Origin: an uncultured archaeon
GTDB lineage: Archaea > Asgardarchaeota > Thorarchaeia > Thorarchaeales > CAZPUN01
Length of the DNA stretch: 32,000 nt
Assembly: GCA_964589775.1 (NCBI GenBank)
Contig: CAZPUN010000048.1
Coordinates: forward strand, 14,383-46,382
Direction: 5' to 3'
The notes beneath the pieces were generated by a model that saw only the letters and a list, made by a program, of their open reading frames with translations, searched no databases and was not told where the DNA came from. Below, in pieces: positions 4,189 through 11,151 of the stretch (position 1 is the first letter of the stretch; the number at the start of each line of letters is the position of its first letter). The translations under genes and the position numbers were made by a program.

Positions 4189-5520
4189 TCATTTCCAATC
4201 CAATAATCTCTTCTGACCTTCAAGCTTTCTCAGATCTGTGATGTCCTGAGTGATTTCTATTGTACCAATGTAATTGTTCTCATTATCGAAAATTGGTAAA
4301 TACTTGATATATATAAATCGGCCCATAAATTGAATCCAGAACTCTGCCTTTTTACGCTCGCCACTCTTGAAACCCTTGAGGATCTTATCGACAATATGAA
4401 CACTCTTCGGAGGATGACATTGATGAACTTTTCGGCCCAATATTGATGGTGATCTTCCAAATATTCGATGAGGACCATTTGAGAAGAAACGCACACGGTC
4501 ATCTTTATCAATGAAAGATATATCGACAGGTAAAATTTTGAAAATTTCAATTAATTCCTTCACAGATAGGAATCCCGTTCCAAGATCGATATCACCTTCA
4601 CGAACTAATTCATAATCGTCCGGCATGAGACTTTCTTGGTTCATAATTGCTGTTTTTACTTCATCAGGGATAGATAACATCTTTTCCACAGGAATCTTGG
4701 GATCTACTTCGTAAACATGTAAAGGCTTTGCAGATGGTTTCCATTCATCACCCGGTGTGACCTTGAAATAACCAATGTCGGGCTCCTGTTCCTTAATCGC
4801 AACCCATTCGCCTTCTGAAAGTAAGAAACTTAACGTAGGATAAAGAATGTTGTCTTCCCTAAAAGTCATATCAACAAGCGCTTCAATTAACTCATCAACT
4901 CGCTTCTGAACACGAGACACAAAATTACTTACGGTATCAGCTCGTTCAAATAATTTGGACAATACACGGATCGCATAACGGATTTCATCATGCTTAGTCC
5001 ATAAAACAGTCGGAACAGATGTAATACCACGCCTCTCTAAATATGGGAAAATTAACATTTCTTCACGTTCATAGTGCTTGCGTATATCACTCAAGTCTTT
5101 GAGAATGTTCTTAATAGATTGTATAAGATTTTGTTTCGTCTTATCATCAGGTGCATTTGCTAACGAACGCGCATATAACTTCAAAACTTCTGTAATCTTA
5201 ATGATTTCCTTATTCTCATCAGATAAAGTCTTCAACGGATGCCCACTTGGCAATTTATCAAATTTACCTGCACCAGTAACGGATTCTCTAAATATTTCTA
5301 CGTGTATATCACACATTGCTGCGATTTCAGCAGGCGTAACACCTTCCATAACTAATTCTTGCTCAACAACAGGAATTTCCAACGGACTAATACTTTGAAG
5401 TAGATCCTTGAACTTTTTCTTTAGCTCTTCTACATTCTCACCTGCTTGAATAGCCTTCAACATCTTCTTCATTTCTTCTTTCTTATATTCTTCATTTTGC
5501 AGCAGTTCCATTTTTATCAC
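4189..5520 (-). CDS. DUF438 + hemerythrin-like + PAS domain protein
   Basis: ISPLEIPVVEQEL and MCDIHVEIF (DUF438); GHPL, HYEREEMLIFPYLE and LWTKHDEIR (hemerythrin); PVDISFIDKDDRVRFFS and CHPPKSVHIV (PAS_10). The MELLQ ATG, just after GGTGA, is the likelier start. Confidence 0.92.
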   Translation of the reverse strand: MIKMELLQNEEYKKEEMKKMLKAIQAGENVEELKKKFKDLLQSISPLEIPVVEQELVMEGVTPAEIAAMCDIHVEIFRESVTGAGKFDKLPSGHPLKTLSDENKEIIKITEVLKLYARSLANAPDDKTKQNLIQSIKNILKDLSDIRKHYEREEMLIFPYLERRGITSVPTVLWTKHDEIRYAIRVLSKLFERADTVSNFVSRVQKRVDELIEALVDMTFREDNILYPTLSFLLSEGEWVAIKEQEPDIGYFKVTPGDEWKPSAKPLHVYEVDPKIPVEKMLSIPDEVKTAIMNQESLMPDDYELVREGDIDLGTGFLSVKELIEIFKILPVDISFIDKDDRVRFFSNGPHRIFGRSPSILGRKVHQCHPPKSVHIVDKILKGFKSGERKKAEFWIQFMGRFIYIKYLPIFDNENNYIGTIEITQDITDLRKLEGQKRLLDWK

Positions 5521-5615: not shown

Positions 5616-5635
5616 AATATGCCATGCGTCATATA
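5616..5635. promoter_or_regulatory. Second, degenerate operator AATATGCCA-TG-CGTCATATA upstream of the HTH regulator
   Basis: Same spacing as the 5522-5541 site with 15/18 arm positions identical. It overlaps a TATA-like TTAATAT (5614-5620). Confidence 0.65.
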
Positions 5636-5644
5636 TCTATAAAC

Positions 5645-6034
5645 ATGAAAATAAATGCATTTGAAGTCGCGTCGAGATATGTTTATCCATCTATCCGAAG
5701 ACGGATTGTAGAGATTTTGTCCAATGAACACAAATTAAATCAGCGTGAGATAGCTCGATTGATCCATATCACTCAATCTGCGGTATCGCGATATATTAGA
5801 CAAAATAGAGGAACATACATTGAGATCGAGCAGTTCAAGGACATTGATGAAGAAATTCGCAAGATGGTTCAATGGATTATTAAAGACGAGCCAAACGAAT
5901 ATGATTTGCATAAGAAGATCATTGAGATTTCATTAGAGATGCTGGGGAAGGGCTATGTGTGTGTATTTCACCATGAGATCGATGAATCTGTAGATCCATC
6001 TAGTTGTAAGACATGTATTGATCTTTTTGGTTGA
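5645..6034 (+). CDS. HTH transcriptional regulator (COG2522-like) with C-terminal CxxH...CxxC
   Basis: LNQREIARLIHITQSAVSRYI HTH, then CVFHH...CKTC. The track start (5624) falls inside the operator, so ATG 5645 (MKINAFE) is preferred. Confidence 0.85.
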   Translation: MKINAFEVASRYVYPSIRRRIVEILSNEHKLNQREIARLIHITQSAVSRYIRQNRGTYIEIEQFKDIDEEIRKMVQWIIKDEPNEYDLHKKIIEISLEMLGKGYVCVFHHEIDESVDPSSCKTCIDLFG

Positions 6035-6376: not shown

Positions 6377-7159
6377 ATGGTTTTTGATGAAGATATAATT
6401 GGTCCCAAAGACAGCATAGAATTAGAATTAAGTGATAGAAATACTCGCGAATCAAATATAAAAATGACAATACTCATTCCGATAATTGTAGTTATATTAA
6501 CGTTCATATCATTTGCATTCATTTCTGCGATTATATTATTAATTATAAATCCTAACTTTCTCTATACAGGAATTATCTTACCATGGCAGATGCAGCTGCT
6601 TAGTGCATTAGAACTATTTTTCTTAATTGTACCAGTAATTATTTTTCGTAAAGATTGGAAAAGAAAATTAGGATTCCATGCAGAAAATATAGAAAAAATA
6701 ATTTCAGAAAGTCTAATGGGGATTTTATTTGGATTTATTGTTTTTGGCGTAAATATATTAGTTGGATTTATTCAGGAAATTATCACGCCGAATACATCTG
6801 AACAGATTGACTACAGCTTTATGGTTTCAAAAGATCCAATTTCTTTAATCATTTGGGTTATAGTTATGGTGTTCTTTGTTGGGTTTAGCGAAGAAACATT
6901 ATTCAGAGGATATTTACAGAACCAATTCAAGAGGGGATTCACAAATAGATATGGTCCCCACGGAAATATCCTTGCAATTGTTTTAGCGGCATTTATTTTC
7001 GCATTAGTTCATTTAAATATCGAAGGTTTCTTGGCATTATTCGCAATGGGTATCGCACTTGGAATAATTTTTGAATATAGAAAAAACATATATACAGTCG
7101 CAGTAGCACATGGAGTTCAAAATGCCATTGTAATTCTAATTATTTCTATGACGCTATGA
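6377..7159 (+). CDS. CPBP (CAAX/Abi) intramembrane metalloprotease
   Basis: EETLFRG, FALVH and AHGVQN motifs; multiple TMs. Confidence 0.92.
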   Translation: MVFDEDIIGPKDSIELELSDRNTRESNIKMTILIPIIVVILTFISFAFISAIILLIINPNFLYTGIILPWQMQLLSALELFFLIVPVIIFRKDWKRKLGFHAENIEKIISESLMGILFGFIVFGVNILVGFIQEIITPNTSEQIDYSFMVSKDPISLIIWVIVMVFFVGFSEETLFRGYLQNQFKRGFTNRYGPHGNILAIVLAAFIFALVHLNIEGFLALFAMGIALGIIFEYRKNIYTVAVAHGVQNAIVILIISMTL

Positions 7160-9373: not shown

Positions 9374-10204
9374 TCATATTAAGAGTAATACTATAAATGC
9401 ATCAATTGTTGCATGAAGCATTATAGGTGCAATTAGATTTTTCGTTCGTTCCCAAAGATAACCAAACATTATTCCAATAACAGCTTGAAAGACAATAGAG
9501 TGAGCAAATGCATATAATATGCTATGTGTCCCAAGATATAGAATGGGAATATGCATCAAACCAAAGATTATCGCAGAATAAAATATTCCTGCTTTTGCAG
9601 ATTTAAACAAATTGGAGATACGAGTCTGAATAACACCACGAAATAGAAATTCTTCAGGTAGTGCAGCAGCTAAGAAGTAAATAAATAAACCAATTAACAC
9701 GTTAGTTATATATATATAAGGATCAGCAAACATGTGAGATGCAAAATATGCAATTGCTAAGATTACGCCAATAATCAGGGAGAGAATTCCACCTACAAAA
9801 AGATTCTTTTTCAGATCATTCGTAGAAAATCCAAAATCGGGTAAACTGTAAGTTCTATATAATATCAGTAACGGAAATATAACCATAAATACATTTTTCC
9901 AAAGAATAGAGAACCATATGTCTGAAATATTTAAAATAATTCTAAAGTAAATTATTGATGCGACAGCCAAGATAAGAGCAAGACTCAACTCGTAGATCTC
10001 ATTGGATGTCTGAATTTGAATAACACTCATATTTTTTGTCAACTTTGTAATTGAAGGAATGAGAATTAGAAAGAATAAGCCAAAAAACACGATAAATAAA
10101 TGGAAGGGATAAAATATTACAAATATACTTAAGGATAGTACATATAATATAATAAATAACAGTATAGGATTTCTATGCTCATCATTTTGAAACATTATGA
10201 TCAC
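9374..10204 (-). CDS. Second CPBP (CAAX/Abi) intramembrane metalloprotease
   Basis: EEFLFRG, FGLMH and LHATID motifs. Confidence 0.92.
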   Translation of the reverse strand: MIIMFQNDEHRNPILLFIILYVLSLSIFVIFYPFHLFIVFFGLFFLILIPSITKLTKNMSVIQIQTSNEIYELSLALILAVASIIYFRIILNISDIWFSILWKNVFMVIFPLLILYRTYSLPDFGFSTNDLKKNLFVGGILSLIIGVILAIAYFASHMFADPYIYITNVLIGLFIYFLAAALPEEFLFRGVIQTRISNLFKSAKAGIFYSAIIFGLMHIPILYLGTHSILYAFAHSIVFQAVIGIMFGYLWERTKNLIAPIMLHATIDAFIVLLLI

Positions 10205-10261
10205 ATCTTTTTTAGTGGTGTTAAAAAGTAATCCCTATGTATAAAATTATTGGTGAGACTT

Positions 10262-10396
10262 TTGGTACAAAAAGCAGACAGAACCAAATGCGAAATATAT
10301 TCAAGAGTGGTGGGATATCTAAGACCTATTGATCAATGGAATGAAGGCAAATATGAAGAATTTAAAAATAGAAAGAAATTTGATTCTGTGAAATAA
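10262..10396 (+). CDS. 44-aa stand-alone glycyl-radical peptide homologous to the NrdD (class III RNR) C-terminus
   Basis: Not in the track. GGTGA (10252-10256), then TTG: MVQKADRTKCEIYSRVVGYLRPIDQWNEGKYEEFKNRKKFDSVK*. It carries the NrdD signature YSRxxGYLRP...WNxGKxxEFxxR. Confidence 0.88.
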   Translation: MVQKADRTKCEIYSRVVGYLRPIDQWNEGKYEEFKNRKKFDSVK

Positions 10397-10411: not shown

Positions 10412-10519
10412 CTATTCTTCCTTCTTTTCTTTCTTGTAGGGGTTTCCTTTCATAGGGTTCTTGGGCTTGTGTATCTTAATTGAAAAGGTTTCCTTTAATT
10501 TCTCCTTTATAGAAGACAT
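10412..10519 (-). CDS. 35-aa lysine-rich small protein of unknown function
   Basis: Not in the track. GGGAGG RBS upstream of ATG: MSSIKEKLKETFSIKIHKPKNPMKGNPYKKEKKEE*, followed by a T-rich terminator-like tract. Confidence 0.6.
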   Translation of the reverse strand: MSSIKEKLKETFSIKIHKPKNPMKGNPYKKEKKEE

Positions 10520-10671: not shown

Positions 10672-11151
10672 ATGAGCTCTGAAACAAAGCCAAAGAAAAA
10701 ACGAATTGAACGAATGGAATACGAATTTGATATGTATTTAGAAGGCAACTATAAATTCCATATCACCTTTGATCTACCGAATGTACCAGAATTCTTAATG
10801 GATGAACCACCCGAAATTGGTGGTGAGGGCGCAGGCCCAAATGCGGCACGTGTTGTTGCAGCAGGTGTTGGAGATTGTTTGAGTGCCAGTCTGATTTTCT
10901 GTCTTAGAAAAATGAAGATCCCAATCAAAGACTTCAAGACGCATGTAAAAGCAGTAGTCGAGCGAAATGCAGATGGGTATTTAAGATTATCACACATTTA
11001 TGTTACACTAAATCCAAAAATCGGAAAAGAATATGAACAAAAGAACCTAGAACGATGTATAAGTATTTTCCAGAAATATTGTATTGTATCAGATGCTATA
11101 CGACATGGCGTTCCAATTGATGTGGATGTAAAGCCTGAAGAAGAGGCATAA
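10672..11151 (+). CDS. OsmC/Ohr family protein
   Basis: DEPPEIGGEGAGPN, GDCLSASL and KYCIVSDAI give the two conserved Cys; AGGTGA RBS. Confidence 0.9.
   Translation: MSSETKPKKKRIERMEYEFDMYLEGNYKFHITFDLPNVPEFLMDEPPEIGGEGAGPNAARVVAAGVGDCLSASLIFCLRKMKIPIKDFKTHVKAVVERNADGYLRLSHIYVTLNPKIGKEYEQKNLERCISIFQKYCIVSDAIRHGVPIDVDVKPEEEA

Follow-up and report, generated by a model that had tools for sequence, protein, structure and literature searches.

An orphan glycyl-radical tail of the NrdD type, predicted in an archaeal genome whose class III ribonucleotide reductase is split

A small open reading frame at positions 10262..10396 of the plus strand (48-residue form from 10250), identified with Pfam NRDD and a tail-family hidden Markov model (HMM), is predicted to encode an autonomous glycyl-radical module of the NrdD type and not a member of the GrcA family. 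It lies in a window of 32,000 nucleotides, the whole stretch of DNA analysed here. By its predicted gene content, the genome has a class III ribonucleotide reductase (RNR) that already takes its radical tail in trans, and the window ORF is a second, orphan tail. We regard it as an even call whether the ORF functions as a second small subunit, or replacement cartridge, for this two-piece enzyme.

Oxygen destroys glycyl radical enzymes at the radical glycine. According to a June 2026 review, formate lyases are the only ones with known spare-part proteins, and the existence of such proteins for other glycyl radical enzymes is yet to be determined (PMC13450708); the question is likewise left open in PMC8683613. 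Kammel and Sawers (2022), as cited in PMC13450708, report that GrcA restores an inactive full-length variant of pyruvate formate-lyase (PFL) in vivo. Phage T4 Y06I is a GrcA homologue for PFL (PMC13450708). The class II RNR of Pseudomonas aeruginosa is split into NrdJa and NrdJb (PMC9669993). No description of a split class III RNR, or of an autonomous radical domain of the NrdD type, was found in the open-access literature searched.

The open reading frame and its surroundings

The open frame extends from 10232 to 10396 on the plus strand, bounded upstream by an in-frame TAA (10229-10231) and closed by the stop codon TAA (10394-10396). No in-frame ATG occurs across 10232-10396. The candidate starts are TTG at 10250, GTG at 10253 and TTG at 10262, which give 48, 47 and 44 amino acids, respectively. 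A Shine-Dalgarno-like GGTGAG, found by reading the sequence, is located at 10252..10257 (plus strand), 4 nt before the TTG at 10262, and would be a plausible ribosome-binding site for this start. A sequence-only reading of this DNA had credited the ORF with its own ribosome-binding site; the motif is present at the right place, and its role in translation is presumed. The sequence GAGGTGA precedes the ATG of the cognate tail gene described below and that of a split nrdD from Nanobdellota. The codon of the predicted radical glycine, GGA, is at 10313..10315 (plus strand) inside the motif SRVVGYLRP. Past the stop, a T/C-rich tract at 10414..10437 (plus strand) may be an archaeal oligo-T terminator, to judge from the sequence alone. 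At the ORF, promoter and terminator signals of the bacterial type are no stronger than in shuffled sequence; no significant hairpin follows the stop, where the local fold is no better than that of shuffled sequence, and an Rfam scan of the locus gave zero family matches. The GC content is 31%, against 27-30% locally. The ORF is missing among the 40 matches listed from a public protein collection in a length-restricted search, and because it is absent from these proteins it has seemingly never been called as a gene.

Only about 45-57 nt separate the ORF from its upstream neighbour, which profile annotation identifies as a CPBP/Rce1-like protease gene (9374-10204, minus strand). This gene is divergent, so the ORF is not a frameshifted tail, as had been argued earlier. 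A second CPBP/Rce1-like protease gene (6377-7159) and an HhH-GPD glycosylase gene are also located upstream, and profile annotation places an OsmC gene downstream (10672-11151). The observation that an nrdD body and nrdG are lacking nearby holds for the window; both exist elsewhere in the genome. No remnant of an NrdD body was found flanking the ORF. The redox-stress neighbourhood described in the sequence-only reading is real as regards OsmC and the glycosylase; as a link to oxygen, the neighbourhood of OsmC, hemerythrin and glycosylase genes is circumstantial. The hemerythrin domain belongs to a DUF438, hemerythrin and PAS_10 protein (4189-5520, minus strand), a possible O2/NO sensor, whose gene is divergent from that of a small winged-helix (wHTH) regulator (5624-6034, plus strand); the pair is located about 4-6 kb upstream of the orphan tail. 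No tRNA, flanking repeats, integrase or viral genes occur in the window and its composition is uniform, which leaves a mobile-element or provirus context unsupported. Read by eye, the upstream regions of the orphan, nrdD body and nrdG genes show no obvious common motif.

Identity as an NrdD tail

Residues 12-44 of the ORF match positions 531-562 of the 562 in the Pfam NRDD profile (PF13597) with an E-value of 1.5e-9 and 37.5 bits (cut-off 26.2), which confirms the earlier description of a 44-aa ORF made up of the NrdD C-terminal loop alone. The match to TIGR02487 (NrdD) covers positions 548-580 of 581 and scores 36.5 bits against a cut-off of 326. At 44-48 residues, the ORF has neither the ten-stranded catalytic barrel nor the finger loop that carries the thiyl-radical cysteine, and is thus predicted to be a piece of the NrdD enzyme, not the whole enzyme. 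It does have the R-[VI]-x-G-Y loop and the conserved W-N-x-G-K...F...R helix of the NrdD C-terminus. The glycine is invariant across an alignment of 37 stand-alone tails, and all 18 invariant or near-invariant residues of the tail family are intact in the window ORF.

An HMM was built from 40 other small tails, the training proteins having been retrieved with the window ORF as query. The scores on this model are 90.9 bits for the window ORF, 85.2 for the cognate tail on contig C7 and 31.8 for the tail of the dead NrdD on contig C21; 11 of 97 other small tails outscore the window ORF, which places it in the top ~12%. A chance ORF is ruled out by the Pfam NRDD match together with the tail HMM score, and the reading frame appears free of any sign of decay.

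The tail-family profile aligns weakly (E 0.005) to residues 610-645 of Thermotoga maritima NrdD (4COI), and in this weak alignment the glycine of the window ORF superposes on the G of the RIVGYL motif, which we take to be the radical glycine of that enzyme. An AlphaFold2 (AF2) model of the peptide alone (48 residues; pLDDT 67.5, a modest confidence) is a β-hairpin with the glycine at its tip, followed by a helix, and the modelled shape fits a glycyl-radical finger. A Foldseek search with this model gave zero PDB matches, as expected at 48 residues.

The NrdD and NrdG genes of the genome

The assembly (2.16 Mb in 64 contigs, 96.8% complete) contains four NRDD matches: a body and a tail on C7, a full-length protein on C21 and the window ORF. 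The C7 locus (L001 1218-3513, minus strand) encodes a 693-aa NrdD body that covers positions 1-532 only of the NRDD profile. Its active-site motifs, YCVGWD and SMCCRLRL, are canonical. Behind the zinc ribbon (CPIH...CPIC) comes a short stretch of low complexity, just past which the protein ends. A 66-aa tail ORF begins 13 nt past the TGA of the body, in a different frame and with its own ATG; its GAGGTGA is embedded in the end of the body gene. We read this arrangement as a genuine two-gene, translationally coupled split of nrdD. NrdG is encoded on the same contig, about 24 kb from nrdD (TIGR02495, 210 bits, cut-off 131), and its CxxxCxxC motif, CNFRCPYC, is intact. A tail-less body and its activase are therefore both present in the same genome as the window ORF.

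The C21 locus (L002 1492-3684, minus strand) encodes a full-length NrdD of 730 aa, of the type found in all relatives in the class. Aligned with seven of these relatives, the C21 protein has lost the cysteine of YFSTRDYC and all of the finger-loop cysteines (EAGCSSCCS is changed to IAGSIISAD), and its radical glycine is replaced by threonine (SRITGY is changed to SRISTY). C21 NrdD is thus predicted to be a paralogue of intact length that is catalytically dead. Its gene adjoins two wHTH genes.

With the C7 body tail-less and C21 dead, the only competent class III RNR of this genome therefore takes its radical loop as a separate polypeptide, and three states occur together in this genome: a full-length NrdD that is dead, a split NrdD accompanied by its cognate tail, and the additional orphan tail. 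The sequence-only reading had proposed a GrcA-like repair part for oxygen-cleaved, full-length NrdD. The stand-alone tail in this proposal survives, but the full-length recipient does not, as the competent NrdD is already split. That reading had also suggested looking for a full-length nrdD with its own glycine loop, together with nrdG; nrdG is present, but the sole full-length NrdD is the C21 protein. It had further reasoned that a genomic nrdD lacking its C-terminus would make the peptide a subunit of a split enzyme. The C7 body does lack its tail, but it has a tail gene of its own directly beside it.

The orphan and cognate tails are 66% identical over a 38-residue core, with saturated synonymous divergence (pS 0.73) and a dN/dS of ~0.10, and the orphan is without the 25-residue leader of the C7 tail. 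A recent duplication within the genome is rejected by the saturation of synonymous sites. The closest sequences to the window tail are stand-alone tails from unrelated metagenomes and from one DPANN archaeon (74-79% identity), and its synonymous divergence is saturated against every known relative; the orphan would have come either from an old duplication or by separate arrival. A metagenome scan gave no match to the window ORF above 84% identity. Across 86 other genomes of the class, every one of a different family, the orphan has no ortholog. The source genome is the sole member of its family among the genomes searched. In one genome of the class, a 110-aa frame (L160 1629-1961, plus strand; G050 contig C152) ends in a divergent stand-alone tail, MSRVVGYFSKIENWN..., and no NrdD body is found among the long ORFs of the 4-kb locus.

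Stand-alone tails in other genomes

The earlier expectation that similar short NrdD-tail ORFs occur in other organisms is well founded; they are found as split nrdD genes in ten genomes, as genes for zinc-ribbon and tail proteins and as small viral ORFs. A search of 5.8 billion proteins, restricted by length, yielded 40 of 38-76 aa that are all laid out in this way: a methionine, a short leader, R-T-K-C-E-[IV]-Y-S-R-V-V-G-Y-L-R-P and then W-N-x-G-K...E-F-x-D-R. The window ORF fits the small-tail pattern, with a short leader and an RT[KR]CE[IV]YSRVVGYLRP core within ~38-80 aa, but starts with TTG, not ATG.

Eighty loci with the motif from species genomes were sorted by their stop-to-stop frame and by tblastn with the C7 body. 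Ordinary full-length NrdDs account for about 62 of them; in about 10 the gene is divided as on C7, the tail lying next to the body; and three encode larger zinc-ribbon and tail proteins with no body upstream. The hosts of the split genes are mostly Woese-, Micr-, Iain- and Nanoarchaeota (DPANN), with one Bipolaricaulota genome; L068, GAGGTGAATTGAATG, is a DPANN example of the C7-like design. In each of the 10 other genomes with split nrdD, every body is matched by exactly one tail; G100, one of the ten, has two split loci, both complete.

In one of these three loci, a Paceibacterota operon (L096 3988-7104, plus strand), a full-length nrdD (710 aa) is followed by a gene for an 85-aa zinc-ribbon and tail protein and then by nrdG. 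The tail of the 85-aa protein is identical over 36 residues to that of the adjoining nrdD, which suggests that the two tails may evolve in concert. Among 80 metagenome loci, about 25 are true small tails. About six of these have no body in the 700-2700 nt of upstream sequence that could be read, and several adjoin helicase, HNH or exonuclease genes.

Viral tail genes

The best 80 IMG/VR loci were ranked by similarity to small tails, an order that favours small tails, so the fractions that follow are not prevalences: 60 of 74 tails are small ORFs, and 58 of these 60 have no NrdD body within 5 kb. The viral tail genes (L245-L324) encode 39-190 aa. In ten viral genomes searched over the whole record (G087-G096), a tail (profile positions 506/531-562) was found in every case and an NrdD body in none; CheckV rates five of these records as 100% complete, and direct terminal repeats are present in five. 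NrdG is absent from all five viral records tested. As the viral genomes have the tail but no NrdD body, the tail works as an independent gene, and since it is kept in compact genomes without the parent enzyme, it must act on the enzyme of the host. Tail-only genes thus appear to be selected on their own. No neighbouring gene is conserved beside the viral tails, and PHROGs contains no dedicated small-tail family, only the full-length phrog_487. In one virus (L285), the tail gene is directly upstream of a body gene.

Proposed role

The free peptide, which would consist of the glycine loop and the C-terminal helix, is proposed to serve the two-piece NrdD of the genome. NrdG, the radical SAM activase encoded on C7, would take a hydrogen atom from the glycine of the peptide, either free or docked on the body. 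The glycine finger would enter the barrel of the tail-less 693-aa body, a step also required of the cognate 66-aa tail, and the docked glycyl radical would then produce a thiyl radical on the finger loop SMCCRL. With no covalent bond between body and tail, the tail could be exchanged: one destroyed at the radical glycine, for example by oxygen, would be swapped for a fresh one and the 80-kDa body would not have to be resynthesised. Since the C7 body is built to accept a free tail, any compatible tail peptide could in principle serve, and a second tail gene at another locus would give added supply or separate regulation. This scheme presumes that the orphan is expressed, that NrdG activates it, that it binds the C7 body and that it has a link to oxygen damage. 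Counting against an active role are the TTG or GTG start, the upstream space of about 45-57 nt and the lack of an ortholog in the class. In addition, tails and bodies are paired one to one in the ten other genomes with split nrdD, and for this reason an extra tail is no regular part of the system.

These same features lend themselves to another explanation, that the ORF is a relic, either the tail left over from a second split nrdD after deletion of the body or a fragment introduced by a virus or mobile element, unused and unexpressed and intact by chance or recency. We consider this doubtful, although it has to be taken seriously. A second split locus is plausible, as G100 has two complete ones, and this genome already keeps one dead NrdD, on C21. 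The ORF has only TTG or GTG starts behind a very short intergenic region and is without an ortholog in the 86 genomes of the class, and the one-to-one ratio of body to tail in the ten other split-nrdD genomes makes an extra copy look accidental. Intactness by chance is, however, hard to reconcile with the state of the ORF: neutral drift should have given a 135-nt AT-rich frame a stop codon or cost it the glycine loop, but the 18 invariant or near-invariant residues are retained, the HMM ranks it in the top ~12% of small tails and the Shine-Dalgarno-like motif is at the right distance from the TTG at 10262. Recency fits poorly with a GC content (31%) near the local 27-30% and with saturated synonymous divergence, which indicate that the tail is not a very recent arrival, and the flanks hold no body remnant, repeats, tRNA or integrase.

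The peptide could instead be a regulator or decoy that competes with the C7 tail for access to the body or NrdG, thereby tuning or shutting down the class III RNR, for example under oxidative stress. Its position apart from nrdD and nrdG, beside OsmC and near the hemerythrin-PAS protein, would suit such a role, as would its sequence, which differs from the cognate tail at a third of the core positions and is without the 25-residue leader. A decoy, however, needs none of the complete catalytic loop that is kept here, including the glycine and the flanking invariant residues, and genes of this kind also occur in viruses, which have a need for dNTPs; we consider the idea improbable. Supply of the glycyl radical in trans to C21 NrdD, which reads SRISTY where its relatives read SRITGY, would parallel the restoration of inactive full-length PFL by GrcA (as cited in PMC13450708), but it is rejected as very improbable, largely refuted by the loss of the finger-loop cysteines and of the YFSTRDYC cysteine, which leaves no acceptor for a thiyl radical, and the C21 tail is of a different NrdD subfamily (31.8 against 90.9 bits).

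The replacement cartridge for the two-piece enzyme is the reading that we carry forward. Its stronger form, an expressed and possibly stress-regulated, exchangeable radical cartridge that would, together with the viral and bacterial tail genes, make up the first spare-part or detachable-radical-subunit system beyond pyruvate formate-lyase, we put forward tentatively. If true, an exchangeable 5-kDa radical peptide would answer the spare-part question for the enzyme that supplies anaerobes with DNA precursors, would offer a minimal substrate for the study of NrdG activation and would explain the viral 'nrdD fragment' genes of 40-60 aa that occur without a reductase body. To the tails of bacteria and viruses the present locus adds an archaeal case, a minimal ribbon-less form and an orphan second tail beside a split NrdD and a dead, ancestral one.

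Relation to known systems

The window ORF resembles GrcA/YfiD of E. coli and T4 Y06I in being a small stand-alone domain with a radical glycine, for which action in trans and activation by a radical SAM enzyme are presumed. Viruses carry counterparts of both kinds, T4 Y06I for PFL and the many IMG/VR genes for the NrdD tail. The differences from GrcA/YfiD (IPR011140) are in sequence, size and setting. The window ORF does not contain the PFL-type Gly_radical domain (PF01228), PF13597 being the only Pfam family reported at E-values up to 1. It has 44-48 residues compared with the 127 of GrcA and is without the long disordered N-terminal half of the latter. The recipient is tail-less here by the structure of its gene, whereas that of GrcA becomes so by oxygen cleavage of PFL, and the genome has no full-length parent with a functional glycine loop, NrdD being split and the C21 protein dead.

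A closer likeness is found in the small subunits of split class III RNRs (C7, DPANN and Bipolaricaulota), with which the window ORF shares the signature R-T-[KR]-C-E-[IV]-Y-S-R-V-V-G-Y-L-R-P...W-N-x-G-K...F...R. Like the cognate C7 tail, it is a small ORF with a short leader behind a Shine-Dalgarno motif; unlike that tail, it is not adjacent to the body gene, has no translational coupling and starts with TTG instead of ATG. With 66% core identity, it is as far from its cognate counterpart as from the tails of unrelated organisms. The division of an RNR catalytic chain into two polypeptides, with a C-terminal functional module set apart, is shared with NrdJa/NrdJb (PMC9669993). NrdJb belongs to an enzyme of another class and cofactor and contains the reducing cysteine, a zinc finger and IscU-like domains but no radical site, in contrast to the NrdD tail.

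The zinc-ribbon and tail mini-proteins (~85-150 aa; L096, L066, L113 and viruses) also present a stand-alone NrdD loop, presumably in trans. They have a CxxC...CxxC ribbon of their own; some of their genes stand alone and others lie between nrdD and nrdG, and in some cases a full-length nrdD with its own tail is present as well. The window ORF is reduced to a minimum: it has one cysteine and no ribbon, which here belongs to the body. L066 (5749-6111, plus strand) and L113, from Thermodesulfobacteriota/Desulfobacterales, encode proteins of 120-166 aa that have CxxC...CxxC and an NrdD tail, and an nrdD body is absent within 6 kb of either. These two proteins, the Paceibacterota mini-protein and several of the viral ones have the motif Y-x-K-C-x-x-C-[FY]-x-K-[DN]-P-x-L-x-N in common.
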